This document shows, piece after piece, positions 2,935-11,867 of a stretch of 23,674 nt of DNA. Position 1 is the stretch's first letter, and every line of letters starts with the position of its first letter. A program made the position numbers and the translations under genes. The stretch covers positions 1-23,674 of the forward strand of contig CAWFQL010000022.1 in NCBI GenBank assembly GCA_963817915.1, in the 5' to 3' direction. The notes beneath the pieces were generated by a model, which was given only the letters and a program-made list of their open reading frames with translations, had not been told where the DNA came from and searched no databases. Source of the DNA: an uncultured candidate division Zixibacteria bacterium. Lineage in GTDB: Bacteria; Zixibacteria; MSB-5A5; UBA10806.

Positions 2935-3095
2935 AACCTTCTATGCCAGAAAGTAGCAACATTGCTTGACGGTGTTCAAATAGCGGGGGGCACAGGGCGG
3001 TATGGGATGCCCAAAATCAGCCGTCGGGGGTATATTTTGCAAAGCTGAAATCGGCGCAGCGCAAATCGACAACCCATATGGTGCTGCTAAAGTAA
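2935..3095 (+). pseudogene. Orphan C-terminal part of a CTD, with no start codon in the CTD frame
   Basis: Translates NLLCQKVATLLDGVQIAG/HRAVWDAQNQPSGVYFAKLKSAQRKSTTHMVLLK* if one G is added in the G-run near 2985-2990. Confidence 0.85.
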
Positions 3096-3119
3096 TATTT
3101 GTATCATAACATTTTATAC

Positions 3120-3148
3120 TTGACAAGCCCGTCTATACTAATTATCTT
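3120..3148 (+). promoter_or_regulatory. sigma70-type promoter
   Basis: TTGACA (3120-3125), 17 bp spacer, TATCTT (3143-3148). Both boxes are conserved in the second copy. Confidence 0.75.
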
Positions 3149-3154
3149 AAGATT

Positions 3155-3389
3155 ATAAATTAATAATAGCGATAACGACAGCACTTGATTTAGCATCTTT
3201 TGGATCGCTTGGAATTTTATCTATGAGGATTCCATGCGCTGTCGATTTCAGGAAAATAGCTTTAACCCCAACTGGACTCGTGCCCCCCGCTAACTTCTTG
3301 GGGGGGGGGGCATATACGCGCTCCGCCCATAACGAACCTTCTTGGCTTGTGTGTTAACATTCTTCTCTAAATCTTTAAGGAGGTTCAAG
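3155..3389 (+). ncRNA. Putative structured 5' leader RNA, copy 1 (three-way junction, C6/G11 hairpin, anti-SD helix)
   Basis: Helices 3176-82/3238-44, 3187-93/3200-06, 3210-18/3226-34, 3280-88/3305-13 and 3334-43/3377-86. Differences from copy 2 preserve pairing. The 5' end is inferred from the promoter. Confidence 0.6.
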
Positions 3390-3827
3390 ATGTCTTCCAA
3401 TTCCATTCGTACTTTCAAAATCATTGCACTTCTGATCTTCGTCTTTAGTGCCCAGTTTGTCCTTGCCAATCCGGTCCAAACCATGAGATTATATGCCGCA
3501 GATGACAATGTTCAGGACACAATAATAGCTAGGAGCGGAGTTTTTGACCCCACCGATTCCTACATGACATGGGCAGATACAATTTACTGTGATAATACCT
3601 ACTCCTATTACACAGTCTATTTAGAATATCGCGGTACAAGTATCAGTCATAGCTACCAAATGTCAAGTCTTACGCCGGGGTTAACATATACCGCTGGCGG
3701 CGGTCCTACGTGGGTTGGTCCGAGTACCAGCCATGAATTGGTTATGAGGAAAGATTCAATAGGCAACAAGAATGATCTCAGAAATCTCAGGATGAGAGTC
3801 TACTACAATGCAGGTGGCGCGGATTAA
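3390..3827 (+). CDS. Small secreted protein of unknown function (145 aa)
   Basis: AAGGAGG RBS at 3377-83 and ATG 3390. Sec-type signal MSSNSIRTFKIIALLIFVFSAQFVLA. Shares motifs with 9062..9487. Confidence 0.85.
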   Translation: MSSNSIRTFKIIALLIFVFSAQFVLANPVQTMRLYAADDNVQDTIIARSGVFDPTDSYMTWADTIYCDNTYSYYTVYLEYRGTSISHSYQMSSLTPGLTYTAGGGPTWVGPSTSHELVMRKDSIGNKNDLRNLRMRVYYNAGGAD

Positions 3828-3923: not shown

Positions 3924-6251
3924 ATGCAAAATACAAAAAATCTGTTTACGATTATTGCGTGTTTTATTGTGCTTATTTTCCATGCTTCACAGGTTCAAAG
4001 CGGTGAAAATGTATGGACGACTTCCGGCCCGGAAGGCGCAAGCGTTAAAACAATAGCAATAAATCCTATGGACAACAATGTTATTTATATAGGAACCATT
4101 CAAAACGGAATTTATAAAAGTATTAACGGGGGAGAAAACTGGACTCATTTAGAAATAAGTACAAATCTTCAATCTACTACAATGCGAAAGATCGTGGTTC
4201 ATCCCTTTGGGCCCGACACTATTTATGGGGCCACTGCCGGCGGAATATTTAAGAGTACTGATGCTGGATTATCATGGAATAATATTTCACCTCCGGGAAG
4301 AGAAAATCAGGAATACAGAGCCGTTGTCTTAGATCCATTACGGCCCTATATTATTATTACAGGGGGAGTCTGGGACCGCTGGAAATCAACAAATTCAGGG
4401 CAAAGCTGGACAGAATTTTCCATAGATCCGGAAGGTGGCATGGATCATGAAATCGACGGTTTAGCAATCAACCCTCAAAACCCTAATACTATGTTTCTTG
4501 TTACCCCTGATTCTCAATACGGGAGAGGAATTTATAAGAGTACGGATGAAGGCATTACCTGGTTTAGTACTCAAAATAATTGCGATAGCTCCGGCGTTGG
4601 CCGCGATGTTGAAATAGATCCAATCGACACTAACATTATTTATTTTGCACGAGATGACGGCTTTAGGGTATCTGGCGGGCGATTTCTATCAAAAACAACA
4701 GATAACGGGGTAACCTGGTTTGATATTTCTCCTAATGGCCTTAGTAAGTGGACGGTATTAGATATCTGTATTTCTCCAATAGATCACAATACTGTTTTTA
4801 TCGGCACCGAAACTGATGGGATATTTAAAAGCACTGATGGCGGACTTAATTGGTCTCCTCAAAATGATAGCTTGAGAGCATTAAGTGTATTCTCAATAGA
4901 AATTGCACCTTTGACAGGCACTGTTTTCTCCGGTTTTATTATGGATGGGATTTATAAGTCAGCCAATGGCGGTATTTTCTGGAGAAGAATCAGTCAGAAT
5001 ATTTTTGCGGCTGATTTAATGGATCTTGCGATTATGCCAGATTCAACTGGTGTATTTGCGGTCGGTCAAATTGGGTGTTATTTTTTGCCATCCGGAGGTG
5101 AATCATGGAGGTATATAAATACCGGAATTCCCCCTGGGAATAAACCGGGGTCAATAGAAATGGATGAACATGATCCGTCTGATATTTTTATTAATACTTT
5201 CTCGCCCATTTATCCTCCCCTGTCACCAAATGGTGTGTATCTATCCACCGATCGAGGTCTAACCTGGAGATTTTCAAACAACGGCCTTCCGGTAGACCAG
5301 GGCTATTTCGGTATAGGAATATCCTATCTTGATAATTCAAGGCAAATATACACTGGTACATTTTTTGAATTCGAGACAGCAGGCGTTTATTACTCTTATG
5401 ATATTGGGGAAACCTGGACAAAATGTCAAGGCGGATTGCCCAATCTCTCGCTTTACCCGATTATTGTTGCACCAAACAATTCCAATATCGTATTAACAGC
5501 TGATGGCGATAATAGAGTATATCTATCTACCGATAGAGGCAATACATGGCAGGAAACAACGCCCCTTCCCAGAATTGATTATGAATTTGTATTTGATATT
5601 AATATTGACCCTACAGATTATAATCATATTTTTGCTTCGTGCCATTATGGTGGACTATTTGAATCGCCCGATTTGGGCCAAAGTTGGGATAACATTAATA
5701 ATGATCTACCGCTTTATCCTTCAATTCCCAAAATATACGGCCCTGCAATAAATCCTTCTAATCCGCAAAATATGTTTGTTTTCTCAAATCATAATGGTGT
5801 GTTTCAAACTCACGATGGAGGAACCCATTGGGAATCTTTTAACAATGGTTTCGATATGAGCGCCAGCTCTGGCAATATATATTTTGCTCCGAATGATACA
5901 ACAAGTTTATATATTATTACGCCAAGCCGCTCCGTCTGGTCCATCCATCGCACATTGGACGGAGTTAATGATGATGACTCGACCTTGCCCTCCTCTCTTT
6001 CCCTTTCCTCCTACCCCAACCCCTTTAATGCGCAAACCACAATAAGCTATTCACTCGCCAAGTCCGGCCCGGTAACACTCACCATCTACAACATCCTCGG
6101 CCAGAAAGTAGCTGTACTATTTGACGGCGCGCAGACTGCGGGAGAGCATAGAACGGTATGGGATGCCCAAAATCAGCCGTCGGGAATTTATTTCTACAGG
6201 CTGAATTCCGCCCAATCCAGCAATTCCCGAACGATGCTGTTGCTCAAATAG
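3924..6251 (+). CDS. VPS10/BNR (Asp-box) repeat beta-propeller protein with signal peptide and T9SS-type CTD
   Basis: Many SxDxGxxW Asp-boxes (KSINGGENW, KSTDAGLSW, KSTDEGITW, STDRGLTW) and C-terminal SYPNPFNAQTTISY...MLLLK. Confidence 0.92.
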   Translation: MQNTKNLFTIIACFIVLIFHASQVQSGENVWTTSGPEGASVKTIAINPMDNNVIYIGTIQNGIYKSINGGENWTHLEISTNLQSTTMRKIVVHPFGPDTIYGATAGGIFKSTDAGLSWNNISPPGRENQEYRAVVLDPLRPYIIITGGVWDRWKSTNSGQSWTEFSIDPEGGMDHEIDGLAINPQNPNTMFLVTPDSQYGRGIYKSTDEGITWFSTQNNCDSSGVGRDVEIDPIDTNIIYFARDDGFRVSGGRFLSKTTDNGVTWFDISPNGLSKWTVLDICISPIDHNTVFIGTETDGIFKSTDGGLNWSPQNDSLRALSVFSIEIAPLTGTVFSGFIMDGIYKSANGGIFWRRISQNIFAADLMDLAIMPDSTGVFAVGQIGCYFLPSGGESWRYINTGIPPGNKPGSIEMDEHDPSDIFINTFSPIYPPLSPNGVYLSTDRGLTWRFSNNGLPVDQGYFGIGISYLDNSRQIYTGTFFEFETAGVYYSYDIGETWTKCQGGLPNLSLYPIIVAPNNSNIVLTADGDNRVYLSTDRGNTWQETTPLPRIDYEFVFDINIDPTDYNHIFASCHYGGLFESPDLGQSWDNINNDLPLYPSIPKIYGPAINPSNPQNMFVFSNHNGVFQTHDGGTHWESFNNGFDMSASSGNIYFAPNDTTSLYIITPSRSVWSIHRTLDGVNDDDSTLPSSLSLSSYPNPFNAQTTISYSLAKSGPVTLTIYNILGQKVAVLFDGAQTAGEHRTVWDAQNQPSGIYFYRLNSAQSSNSRTMLLLK
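6000..6149 (+). repeat. 150 bp exact direct repeat inside the CTD, partner 11616-11765
   Basis: tccctttcctcctaccccaac...gggagagcat reads identically in both propeller genes. Confidence 0.9.
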
Positions 6252-8602: not shown

Positions 8603-8765
8603 AACCTTCTATGCCAGAAAGTAGCAACATTGCTTGACGGTGTTCAAACAGCGGGGGGGCACAGGGTGGTGTGGGGATGCCCAAAAGCCGCCGTCGGGGG
8701 TCTATTTCGCAAAGCTGAAATCGGCGCAGCACAAATCGACAACCCAAATGGCGTTGTTAAAGTAA
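8603..8765 (+). pseudogene. Orphan C-terminal part of a CTD, copy 2
   Basis: Translates NLLCQKVATLLDGVQTAGGHRVVW/DAQKPPSGVYFAKLKSAQHKSTTQMALLK* if one G is removed near 8673-8676. Confidence 0.85.
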
Positions 8766-8790: not shown

Positions 8791-8819
8791 TTGACAAGCC
8801 CGTCTATGCTAATTATCTT
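8791..8819 (+). promoter_or_regulatory. sigma70-type promoter, copy 2
   Basis: TTGACA (8791-96), 17 bp spacer, TATCTT (8814-19). Confidence 0.75.
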
Positions 8820-8825
8820 AAGATT

Positions 8826-9061
8826 ATAAATTAATAATAGCGATAACGACAGCACTTGATTTAGCATCTTTTGGATCGCTTGGAATTTTACTTTTGGGGA
8901 TTCCGTGCGCTGTCGATTCAGAAAAATAGCTTTAACCCCAACTGGACTCGTGCCCCCCGCTAACTTCTTGGGGGGGGGGGCACATACGTGCGCCGCCCGA
9001 TAAACTCCTTATAGTTGTACTTCACTTGTAACACCTTAAAACGATTTTAAAGGAGTTGTTT
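8826..9061 (+). ncRNA. Putative structured 5' leader RNA, copy 2
   Basis: Same helices as copy 1 (8847-53/8909-15, 8881-89/8897-8905, 8950-58/8975-83). Anti-SD AACTCCTT (9003-10) pairs with AAGGAGTT (9050-57). Confidence 0.6.
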
Positions 9062-9487
9062 ATGTACAAGAAATTAATTTTCCTTTCTATTATGGCAATC
9101 GGACTGTTTTTCTTGGCTGGTGTACAAACATCTAATGCCTGCGGAAATCAATATTCTATTTCGGCCCAAGATGACAGCTATTTACCAGTGGAACAGAACT
9201 ATGATCCCTGCGACTACTGGGTATCTTGGACCTTTTCATTGAAACGAAATTCGGCTGATAATGGTACTCATGTAGTTGTTAGGTTTGAGGTTATAGGAGC
9301 GAATGTGCTAGAAGATTTCGATTCTCTCGATTTCGATCATTGGGAGACAAAGACTCGTACCGGCGAAGCGTATGTTGGGCCTAGCACTTCAAATACAATT
9401 AAAATATCTAAACTTTCAGGAGTGGGGACAAAATTCACTAACCTGTCAAATTCTGTAAATTATTACAACGATAACGGTAGTAAGTAA
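9062..9487 (+). CDS. Small secreted protein of unknown function (141 aa), distant paralog of 3390..3827
   Basis: AAGGAG RBS and ATG 9062. Signal MYKKLIFLSIMAIGLFFLAGVQTSNA. Shared VGPSTS and YYN motifs. Confidence 0.85.
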   Translation: MYKKLIFLSIMAIGLFFLAGVQTSNACGNQYSISAQDDSYLPVEQNYDPCDYWVSWTFSLKRNSADNGTHVVVRFEVIGANVLEDFDSLDFDHWETKTRTGEAYVGPSTSNTIKISKLSGVGTKFTNLSNSVNYYNDNGSK

Positions 9488-9554: not shown

Positions 9555-11867
9555 ATGTCAACGATTAAAATGATAGCGTATAAAGTTAGTATCATGCTTT
9601 TTATGTCGCTTTACGGTGTGCCCGCTAATTCACAGGATAATACTTGGGTAACCAGCGGTCCACCTGGTGGCAGCATAATGACAATCGCTATCAACCCATT
9701 AAATAACAATATCATATATGTTGGAACCGTTCAAAAAGGAATATTCAAGACTACCGACGGCGGAATATCATGGCGGCATCTTGATTCGAACATACTCTAT
9801 ATGAATCAGAGGGTAATTGCTATTCATCCTACGGCCCCAGACACGGTATATGCTGCCACAAATGGAGGCATTTTTAAGAGCAGTGACGCCGGTGAAACAT
9901 GGCGATTACTCTATCCTCCTTCGGGGCACGATGCTGAATATAGGGCTTTTATCATTAATCCCCAAAACCCAAGCATGCTTTTTGCTGGTGGCCTTCCAGA
10001 ATGGAAATCCACGGATAGCGGCGAATCATGGTTTCAGCTAAATATATGGCCCCGCGTAGGCATAGATGCCTTTGCCGTTAATTATCGCAATCCAAATGAA
10101 ATGTATTTCGCCAGCGGTTCGGTTCTTTATGGTTTAGGAGTATGGAAAAGTGATGACATGGGCGAAACATGGTTTTCAATCCAAAACAACATCGATTCCA
10201 GTCGCAGCACCGGAACAGATGTAGCAATCGATCCTACTGATAGTAATATCTTATATTTTAGTAGAAACTCCGTTAACTCCGGAAATAATAAATGTTTGTT
10301 CAAGTCAACGGACGGCGGACAATATTGGATTGATATTTCTCCACAACAATTAACGGAATTTAATATTAAAAAAATCGCAATATTTCCACATAACAATCAG
10401 ATTATCTTTGTATGTACTTTTACCGATGGCGTGCTTAAAAGCACCGATGGCGGCGTAGCTTGGGTGCCAAAAAATCAAGGACTCGATGGCTTACGCACCA
10501 AAACAATAGTAATTGATTCGATATCAGACATAATTTACCTCGGTACATATATCAATGGGCTCTACAAATCGCTTGATAACGGCGAAACATGGCAGAGTAT
10601 TAGCGAAAATATTACAGCATCATACTGCAATACAATCGCTTTTAAGCCGGATGATCCATCTCCAATATATGCGTCAGCCACCAATGGAATTTTTAAATCC
10701 GCGGACATCGGGCAGTCCTGGGAGCGTATAAACATTGGAATTCCGATTCAAAATATCCCCGGCGGCGGCATTATATTTGACAATCTTAACAGCAACAATA
10801 TATTTCTAACCAGTAGTCAGACGGAATTCCCCGATGTTCCTGCCGGAATCTACCGCTCGACCGATTCCGGTGTTAGTTGGGAATTTCTCATTAACGGAAT
10901 AGCGCTGGAAATCGGACTAAACGATATAGCGATATCCTGCCTCTCCACTGGAGAAAAGCGTCTTTTTACAATAGGGCAAGGAGTATACTTTTCGGATGAT
11001 ATGGGCGATTCCTGGAATCTCTGCGACGGTTTTTCACCTAATGGCCCTATTCACACAGTAATCGATCTTGCCCCCAATAATCCCAATATAATTGCGGTTG
11101 GCGAGGGTTGGGGCGAATGGGATCAGCGAATTTTTATCTCGACAGATCGCGGTGAATCATGGAATCAGACAACTCCTTTGCCATCAAGACATTTTCCCGG
11201 AATAAACAGCTTAAAATTTGATCCTCAAAATGCTAATCATATTCTGGTTGCCAGCGACAATGTAGGGCTTTTCGAGACTTATGATTTTGGTACAAGCTGG
11301 GCCGATTTGACAAATCAGGTGCCTCTCTTACCGCAATATAGGGAGTACCCGGCAATTTCCGGTATTGCCATCAATCCCAACAATCCTATGAATTACTTCA
11401 TCCAACCTCCTTTTCAGGGGGTCTATCAGAGCCATAACGCCGGTCTTACATGGGAGCCATTTAATAACGGACTCGATACGGCTTTTGCCTATGGCAAAAT
11501 ATATTTTATGCCTGATGATACTACACGCTTATTTGTTACCGGCCATGCGGTATCTACCATCCATCGCACTCTCGACGGTGTCGACGATGACGCGCCAACA
11601 TTGCCTGCTATCCTCTCCCTTTCCTCCTACCCCAACCCCTTTAATGCGCAAACCACAATAAGCTATTCACTCGCCAAGTCCGGCCCGGTAACACTCACCA
11701 TCTACAACATCCTCGGCCAGAAAGTAGCTGTACTATTTGACGGCGCGCAGACTGCGGGAGAGCATTCGCTGGTCTGGGATGCCCAAAATCAGCCGTCGGG
11801 GGTGTATTTTTACCGCTTACAGGGCGGAAACTTCTCGAAATCGAGCCAGATGGTCCTCCTGCGATAG
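9555..11867 (+). CDS. VPS10/BNR (Asp-box) repeat beta-propeller protein with T9SS-type CTD, paralog of 3924..6251
   Basis: Same blade organisation (W.TSGP.G.S..TIAINP..NN.IY.GT.Q.GI.K...), multiple Asp-boxes and a CTD. Confidence 0.92.
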   Translation: MSTIKMIAYKVSIMLFMSLYGVPANSQDNTWVTSGPPGGSIMTIAINPLNNNIIYVGTVQKGIFKTTDGGISWRHLDSNILYMNQRVIAIHPTAPDTVYAATNGGIFKSSDAGETWRLLYPPSGHDAEYRAFIINPQNPSMLFAGGLPEWKSTDSGESWFQLNIWPRVGIDAFAVNYRNPNEMYFASGSVLYGLGVWKSDDMGETWFSIQNNIDSSRSTGTDVAIDPTDSNILYFSRNSVNSGNNKCLFKSTDGGQYWIDISPQQLTEFNIKKIAIFPHNNQIIFVCTFTDGVLKSTDGGVAWVPKNQGLDGLRTKTIVIDSISDIIYLGTYINGLYKSLDNGETWQSISENITASYCNTIAFKPDDPSPIYASATNGIFKSADIGQSWERINIGIPIQNIPGGGIIFDNLNSNNIFLTSSQTEFPDVPAGIYRSTDSGVSWEFLINGIALEIGLNDIAISCLSTGEKRLFTIGQGVYFSDDMGDSWNLCDGFSPNGPIHTVIDLAPNNPNIIAVGEGWGEWDQRIFISTDRGESWNQTTPLPSRHFPGINSLKFDPQNANHILVASDNVGLFETYDFGTSWADLTNQVPLLPQYREYPAISGIAINPNNPMNYFIQPPFQGVYQSHNAGLTWEPFNNGLDTAFAYGKIYFMPDDTTRLFVTGHAVSTIHRTLDGVDDDAPTLPAILSLSSYPNPFNAQTTISYSLAKSGPVTLTIYNILGQKVAVLFDGAQTAGEHSLVWDAQNQPSGVYFYRLQGGNFSKSSQMVLLR
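11616..11765 (+). repeat. 150 bp exact direct repeat, partner 6000-6149
   Basis: Identical to 6000-6149 on reading. Confidence 0.9.

Follow-up and report, generated by a model that had tools for sequence, protein, structure and literature searches.

A leader hairpin predicted to sequester the Shine–Dalgarno sequence recurs before small secreted-protein genes of an uncultured Zixibacteria order

Does the complementarity between an mRNA leader and the Shine–Dalgarno (SD) sequence at its end, which is found at two operons of an uncultured candidate division Zixibacteria bacterium, reflect a helix that governs translation, or is it what a pyrimidine-rich leader would show in any case? The window analysed here, 23,674 nucleotides long, is the whole 23.7-kb contig of a 3.3-Mb MAG. 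Each of the two operons starts with the gene of a small secreted protein and continues with that of a BNR/Sortilin protein:

3390–3827, + strand: small secreted protein, copy 1, 145 aa, signal peptide plus eight-strand beta sandwich (AlphaFold2)
3924–6251, + strand: BNR/Sortilin-Vps10 protein with T9SS sorting domain, 775 aa, the conserved operon partner (domain matches)
9062–9487, + strand: small secreted protein, copy 2, 141 aa, 27% identical to copy 1 (E 2e-5)
9555–11867, + strand: BNR/Sortilin T9SS paralogue, 770 aa, 46% identical to the product of 3924–6251

A gene for an LVIVD-repeat T9SS protein follows the operon. Judged from their sequences, the two operons are ancient paralogues. The AlphaFold2 model of the 145-aa product, in which the signal peptide is followed by the eight-strand beta sandwich, has a pLDDT of 86.7. 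No Pfam or NCBIfam match was found for the small protein, and a Foldseek search against the PDB returned nothing at E ≤ 1e-3 (best TM-score 0.48, E 1.1e-3); the best likeness, which is weak, is to jelly-roll or lectin-like folds and carbohydrate-binding modules, and Atlas scores were 0.83 or less.

The putative hairpin is formed, in each copy, by an anti-SD arm and by the SD itself:

3334–3343, + strand: anti-SD arm of copy 1, GAACCTTCTT (read from the sequence; local fold; background, shuffle and own/foreign SD tests)
3377–3386, + strand: SD arm of copy 1, AAGGAGGTTC (read from the sequence; folds; ensemble pairing)
9003–9010, + strand: anti-SD arm of copy 2, AACTCCTT (read from the sequence; local fold; background, shuffle and own/foreign SD tests)
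9050–9057, + strand: SD arm of copy 2, AAGGAGTT (read from the sequence; local fold; ensemble pairing)

The helix of copy 1 comprises 10 bp with one G-U pair, GAACCTTCTT being otherwise the reverse complement of AAGGAGGTTC, and the ATG is at 3390; that of copy 2 comprises 8 bp, all Watson-Crick, with the ATG at 9062. The spacers between the arms (33 nt in copy 1 and 39 nt in copy 2) are A/U-rich and mutually unrelated, and both anti-SD arms begin 5–6 nt past the end of a duplicated tract, the boundary of which lies at 3328/8998. On re-reading the window, the helix coordinates, letters and base-pair counts of the first-pass annotation were exact in both copies, and its statement that the arms lie just beyond the point where the leaders stop aligning, with unrelated sequence in between, agrees with the collapse of the alignment after 3328/8998. 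In a comparison of these two sequences, the differences between the arms of copy 1 and copy 2 are compensated, an extra C standing opposite an extra G, and pairing is retained through G-U where the copies read CUUCUU and CUCCUU.

The two leaders belong to a wider family, defined by a profile of the small secreted protein that was searched over genomes (the genome under study is G000). Within the order the profile gave 36 matches, in 15 of the 24 genomes, and across the phylum it matched in 16 of 285 genomes, the protein family being limited to this one order plus one genome outside it. The operon occurs in several paralogous copies per genome, with a third paralogue on contig C18 of the genome under study, and orthologues of the copy 1 protein are 87–66% identical. 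In nearly all loci checked the next gene encodes a BNR/Sortilin homologue, except in some arrays, found in three genomes, where copies of the small gene stand in tandem. The 35 upstream regions read share a common plan in which a G/C homopolymer run is followed by a CC[AGT]CC box and then by the SD, the box lying 56–89 nt before the ATG in 26 leaders. In the window the box is found immediately upstream of the tract boundary in both copies:

3323–3327, + strand: CCGCC box of copy 1, family-wide CC[AGT]CC (leader comparison)
8993–8997, + strand: CCGCC box of copy 2 (leader comparison)

The promoters predicted for the two operons lie far upstream of these elements:

3120–3148, + strand: sigma-70-like promoter of copy 1, TTGACA-N17-TATCTT, 10 of 12 (consensus only)
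8791–8819, + strand: promoter of copy 2, TTGACA-N17-TATCTT (consensus only)

By promoter consensus, transcription of copy 1 is predicted to start at about 3155, which would leave a 5′ UTR of about 235 nt. In 19 of 33 leaders, a strong match to TTGACA-N16-18-TAnnnT (9–12 of 12) lies 204–356 nt before the ATG, its position in the window copies being −270/−271; the family's 5′ UTRs, predicted from the same consensus to be 170–320 nt long, would contain the run, the box and both arms. From these upstream promoters, and thus on the strength of a consensus, we infer that both arms are carried on one transcript.

We propose that each small-protein/BNR operon would be transcribed from such a sigma-70-like promoter with a long 5′ UTR, of about 235 nt in the window and 170–280 nt across the family, and that near the 3′ end of this UTR a CU-rich segment just 3′ of the CC[AGT]CC box would pair with the SD and its flanks. 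The long-range hairpin so formed would occlude 30S binding and damp translation of the small protein until the helix opens; coupling or mRNA stability may extend this damping to the downstream BNR gene. It is probable, though by no means secure, that an SD-sequestering leader hairpin damps translation of the small protein in this way until it is opened. The helix would presumably act as a repressor, and translation of the small protein might then be ‘off by default’, as the first-pass annotation put it; that wording comes from predicted folding, and the agents that may open the helix belong to the model.

The first-pass annotation had gone further and placed translation under the control of the structured leader upstream. 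That leader is part of a longer repeated tract, which in copy 1 contains the following features:

2902–2924, + strand: hairpin with T run resembling an intrinsic terminator, 3′ of the LVIVD gene, within the duplicated tract (sequence)
2988–3095, + strand: relic of a T9SS C-terminal sorting-domain tail, ending …WDAQNQPSGVYFAKLKSAQRKSTTHMVLLK and a stop, with in-frame stops upstream (likeness to BNR tails)
3176–3245, + strand: hairpin domain at the 5′ end of the leader, its hairpins nested in the MFE and centroid structures (predicted folds)

The upstream tracts of the two copies align at 88–96% identity from about 2546/8214 to 3328/8998, the leaders themselves being 95–96% identical up to that boundary. 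The tract, of ~800 nt, spans the 3′ end of the LVIVD gene, the terminator, the sorting-domain relic, the promoter and about 175 nt of leader. The small proteins are only 27% identical, yet these tracts are near-identical, and the tract is therefore, on this comparison, a recent duplication or gene conversion that took in coding DNA as well. Since the likeness of the leaders comes from such a tract, it cannot be taken as a sign of a conserved sensor. Differences between the copies within the 5′ hairpin domain fall, by eye, in a loop or change U-A to U-G. BLAST searches returned the two copies of the leader DNA from its own genome and nothing from 60 relatives. Rfam gave no gathering-score match across the whole window and only noise on 3090–3420 (E 2.5–6.9), so that with hits up to E ≤ 10 included no conserved aptamer upstream of the helix was found. 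With the identity belonging to the duplicated tract, and with these negative searches of the relatives and of Rfam, control by the upstream structured leader is unsupported.

Near-identical leaders in front of diverged operon paralogues were also observed elsewhere, at L025/L037 (G014) and L027/L040 (G019), and the same pattern is found in G017 (L044/L047/L048/L049/L061/L063). The sorting-domain relic, which sits between the terminator and the promoter and has a twin in copy 2 at about 8661–8765, suggests from its sequence that the leader once directly followed a BNR-type gene; the two relic copies differ by G6 versus G7 (2984–2990 versus 8655–8662).

The helix could be real without being an on/off device, in which case it would impose a fixed low rate of initiation, provide a 30S standby loop or protect against 5′ decay. 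This alternative overlaps our main reading and nothing stands directly against it. It is consistent with the absence of a conserved sensor domain in Rfam and in BLAST searches of relatives, with loops that are long (33–39 nt) and A/U-rich, and with run-length changes in silico that leave SD pairing unmoved, whereas the conserved, unpaired CC[AGT]CC box beside the arm hints at a binding site and hence at regulation. On balance we consider this alternative unlikely, and return to sequestration by a helix that can open.

Among the candidate triggers, a factor acting in trans on the box or on the CU-rich arm, either a protein or a small RNA, is put forward tentatively as one to be taken seriously. 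Among the 26 leaders, the box is predicted to pair with the SD region in 8, with the run in 7 and with other sequence in 11; conservation without a constant partner is what a site bound by a protein or a small RNA would be expected to show. It is possible that there is no switch, the helix acting as constitutive damping or as a standby loop. Temperature-type melting of a U-rich, G-U-containing helix is doubtful; the helix of copy 1 has one G-U pair and the arms of the family are U-rich, and the helix of copy 2 consists of 8 perfect pairs. A ligand-sensing upstream domain is improbable, and a metabolite riboswitch is the least likely of the triggers because no conserved aptamer was found.

A leader rich in C or in C and U will often complement a purine-rich SD, and the helices might accordingly be by-products of composition without any function. 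The background used for the two copies consisted of 881 sites of the form GGAG-N4-9-ATG followed by an ORF of at least 80 aa in the same genome, and helices over the GGAG with at most one G-U pair were counted. A helix of at least 8 bp within 70 nt upstream is present at 14 of the 881 sites, both copies included, and a helix of at least 10 bp at two, one of them copy 1. When the 32-nt anti-SD windows were shuffled with composition kept, p was 0.003 for copy 1 and 0.021 for copy 2, although the shuffled windows of the two copies already give a mean helix of 3.5–4.8 bp. The arms are also better matched to their own SDs than to family SDs from foreign genomes: the helix of copy 1 is 10 bp with its own SD and at most 8 bp in the crosses, and that of copy 2 is 8 bp with its own and at most 7 bp in the crosses.

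By energy-based measures, in contrast to these counts of paired bases, the two copies do not stand out. The z-scores are −2.27 and −1.19 for the folds of the full leaders and −1.63, −0.72, −1.83 and −1.97 for those of local pieces. The predicted SD pairing probabilities of 0.94 and 0.93 fall only in the top 8–9% of 832 genes of this genome, where the background median of 0.63 means that the SDs of most genes pair in silico anyway. The SD pairs with the proposed arm in the local MFE and centroid structures and in the ensemble of both copies, and in the local fold of copy 1 the CAU at 3328–3330 additionally pairs with the start codon; in the full-length MFE of copy 2, however, the SD is paired with another partner and the proposed helix is unused.

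Across the family, the helix was sought in a 32-nt window starting 6 nt before the box and was required to cover at least 4 nt of the SD core with at most one G-U pair. With the box adopted as anchor only after the data had been inspected and the background drawn from one genome, a helix of at least 6 bp is found at the box in 14 of the 26 leaders versus 225 of 4150 position-matched windows of this genome's other genes, and one of at least 8 bp in 8 of the 26 versus 25 of the 4150. In the other 12 leaders the helix at the expected place is shorter than 6 bp; eight of these have a weak helix and four have none at the box (G000:C18, which is the third paralogue of this genome, G018:C58, G016 and G013). 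Shuffling of each leader's own window gave p < 0.05 in 11 of the 26. When the whole 140 nt upstream is searched, at least 8 bp are reached in 7 of 32 family leaders versus 25 of 832 genes, and at least 10 bp in 3 of 32 versus 2 of 832, while 21% of the background genes have a helix of at least 6 bp somewhere within that distance. Duplex energy over 136 nt is no different in the family from the background (Mann-Whitney p 0.22).

Each arm is matched to its own SD. Summed over 21 distinct leaders, the length of the helix with the own SD is 113, versus 83.4 ± 6.9 when the SDs are permuted among leaders (20,000 permutations, p about 5e-5), and arms that differ from one another fit the flanks of their own SDs, for example CCTCCTTTTTAG/TTAAAAAGGAGG, TTTCTTTCAAAT/ATTTGAAAGGAA, TTTCCTCCT/AGGAGGAAG and CGCCTCC/GGAGGCG. 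An unguided RNAalifold consensus of seven paralogous G017 leaders consists of a hairpin between the G run and CCACC and then of a 9-bp anti-SD:SD helix, which contains two compensatory pairs (double changes). The members of the family are kin, so the counts overstate independence, and helices of at least 7 bp are found in about six independent lineages.

The pairing is thus above chance in four controls, namely the genome background, the position-matched windows, the shuffles and the own/foreign SD permutation. The leader comparisons show the anti-SD/SD helix to be a recurrent, position-fixed feature, matched to its own SD, across paralogues and genera. The complementarity that the first-pass annotation looked for in homologues is accordingly there in these three respects, and falls short in the 12 leaders with less than 6 bp. 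Those leaders, the unexceptional duplex energies, the 21% of background genes and the helices of shuffled windows all speak for chance or composition; set against the shuffle and permutation p values, the position-matched enrichment and the compensated consensus, they leave a by-product without function quite unlikely.

It is highly improbable that the elements act at the DNA level, as a promoter or operator with a short 5′ UTR, an untranscribed arm and a run that acts in promoter spacing: the fairly fixed distance of 56–89 nt between box and ATG, the occurrence of the run as G in some leaders and C in others, which a role in DNA would tolerate, and the best promoter match lying downstream of the run in two leaders (G002:C11 and G013) fit such a reading, but the matching of arms to their own SD flanks would be unexpected of a promoter element, as would the asymmetry described below, the orientation of the box stays that of the sense strand in leaders with a G run and in those with a C run alike, strong promoters lie upstream in the 19 leaders mentioned above, and no consistent −10-like word is seen by eye downstream of the box. 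The asymmetry is that allowing one G-U lengthens the helix more than allowing one A-C in 11 of the 26 leaders and the reverse holds in 2 of the 26, which favours pairing of the arms in a sense-strand RNA over pairing in an antisense transcript or as a palindrome in DNA. A reading of the run and box as a sigma-54 or ECF-type promoter was also considered and set aside, the spacings being inconsistent by eye.

In addition to the arms and the box, the leaders carry the homopolymer run, which in the window forms the 3′ strand of a hairpin:

3280–3313, + strand: C6 (3283–3288)/G11 (3300–3310) hairpin of copy 1 (sequence, folds)
8950–8983, + strand: C6 (8953–8958)/G11 (8970–8980) hairpin of copy 2 (sequence, folds)

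A G or C run of at least 6 within 200 nt of the ATG is present in 28 of the 32 family leaders. These runs are 6–13 long, lie 80–135 nt before the ATG, consist of G in some leaders and of C in others, and would be situated about 110–140 nt inside the predicted transcript. Seven runs of at least 9 occur in this genome, of which three precede the three paralogues (the third at G000:C18 13838) and four lie inside reading frames; among its 332 runs of at least 6, the composite of run, box and SD-ATG is found only at the three paralogues. In G017, about 10 of the 23 runs of at least 8 are in leaders of small secreted-protein genes, two of these genes being family-like and missed by the profile. Near-identical paralogue leaders of G017 differ in run length (G7 versus G11; G8, G9, G12). 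Both copies in the window are G11, and one low-depth related-strain contig is one G shorter.

Two roles for the run were tried and rejected. A leader peptide or uORF through the run is not indicated by the open spans, which average 46.8 codons in sense and 51.5 in antisense, the sense span being the longer in 12 of 31 leaders. A ‘rheostat’ in which the G run serves as an anti-anti-SD is not indicated either, as modelled SD pairing is flat from G5 to G14 in 12 of 13 leaders. A second word resembling an anti-SD, AACTTCTT (3293–3300, and 8963–8970 in copy 2), lies in the loop of the C6/G11 hairpin and could pair with the SD arm of copy 2 over 8 bp with one G-U.

Hairpins in 5′ UTRs that sequester the SD are well known as the expression platforms of translational riboswitches and of RNA thermometers (fourU, ROSE). 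The working principle proposed here is that of the well-known SD-sequestering leader hairpin: as in those systems, an upstream pyrimidine-rich arm would pair in cis with the SD, G-U pairs occur between U-rich arms, and the helix lies at the 3′ end of a long leader. Unlike in known riboswitches and thermometers, no Rfam aptamer or thermometer model is matched here, the loop is long (33–39 nt), a CC[AGT]CC box is adjacent and a G/C run lies upstream.

Phase variation of surface proteins through homopolymer tracts is familiar from the Bordetella fim promoters and from Neisseria porA/opc. The present leaders resemble such loci in that G/C runs of 6–13 precede multi-copy genes for secreted or surface proteins, with run length differing between near-identical paralogue leaders, and a G/C run of about 7 or more is indeed tied to the gene; they differ in that the run lies inside the predicted transcript, and not in a promoter spacer or a coding frame.

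For the run, the closest published parallel that could be confirmed is the tlpB leader of Helicobacter pylori, in which a variable G-repeat is reported to be targeted by the small RNA RepG, the length of the repeat tuning regulation by this trans-acting RNA (PMC8295292). In both cases a G run of variable length is located in the mRNA leader of a gene with an envelope or secreted function and C/U-rich sequence is available to it, but here the leader itself supplies the C/U-rich partners in cis, and SD pairing stays unchanged when the length of the run is varied in the model.

The first-pass annotation had also named type I toxin mRNAs among its analogues. In the aapA1 type I toxin mRNA of H. 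pylori the SD is sequestered, a long-range 5′–3′ interaction being reported to mask the SD of this small gene (PMC5416894). The analogy breaks down at the product, which is here a 141–145-aa signal-peptide beta-sandwich protein in a BNR operon with a 770-aa enzyme, and no short hydrophobic toxin.

The leader family itself is new and undescribed. Literature searches on Zixibacteria, type IX secretion and BNR proteins, and on SD leaders with homopolymer tracts, gave nothing on such a leader among titles and abstract openings. To our knowledge, hardly any cis-regulatory RNAs have been described from uncultured lineages of the FCB group. An observation made on the sequence of one contig has thus survived comparative tests and led to a leader family in front of an operon that is specific to the lineage and encodes a small secreted beta-sandwich protein together with a T9SS BNR enzyme. 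If the helix gates translation, it would offer a way to approach the rationing of secreted glycan-active proteins in these bacteria; if it merely damps translation, it would be an ordinary case of a familiar mechanism.

The association with the run raises the further question of whether slippage can act on expression within a 5′ UTR. The leader might be read as a composite in which the promoter would be followed, in order, by some 120 nt of 5′ domain, a hypermutable G/C homopolymer, the CC[AGT]CC box, the anti-SD and the SD. On this reading an uncultured order of the FCB group would possess a composite cis-regulatory RNA of a kind not described before, in which slippage and a factor at the box together set the number of paralogous operons translated. 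This is a speculative extension that we regard as unlikely; were it correct, it would amount to phase-variable translational control from inside a 5′ UTR.

Sequences close to copy 1 were also sought. Metagenome scans for its close relatives gave no match, and a search for related loci from a narrow leader alignment recovered only two loci already known. Three short related-strain contigs, each single and of low depth, are identical to the window in the parts of 3331–3393 that they cover and different upstream, with X1 reaching only to 3375. Contig X3 (3253–3393) matches the leader, SD and ATG with 4 differences, the shorter G run noted above being found in this contig, and switches right after the ATG to a different coding sequence. 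Because X3 departs at this point, the block of leader, SD and ATG may travel as a unit that is recombined onto other genes.

Further runs and repeats were observed beside those of the family. In G017, L064, L065 and L070 have a C8 or G11 run and then a GC-rich CCGCC/CCTCC before other small signal-peptide genes, which were not picked up by the family profile. The long in-frame runs of the genome under study are at C3:38811 (C13), C16:183727 (C10), C10:63429 (C9) and C17:126778 (G9), and the runs on C3 and C16 mark the point where overlapping pieces of a split ORF join. Such in-frame runs may reflect frameshift switching or else errors of assembly. At the DNA level, the ends of the two BNR genes that encode the sorting domain are 88% identical (5941–6197 versus 11557–11813), with whole proteins at 46%. 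All five sorting-domain ends of the window belong to a single repeat family, and concerted evolution extends to the tracts before the two small genes.
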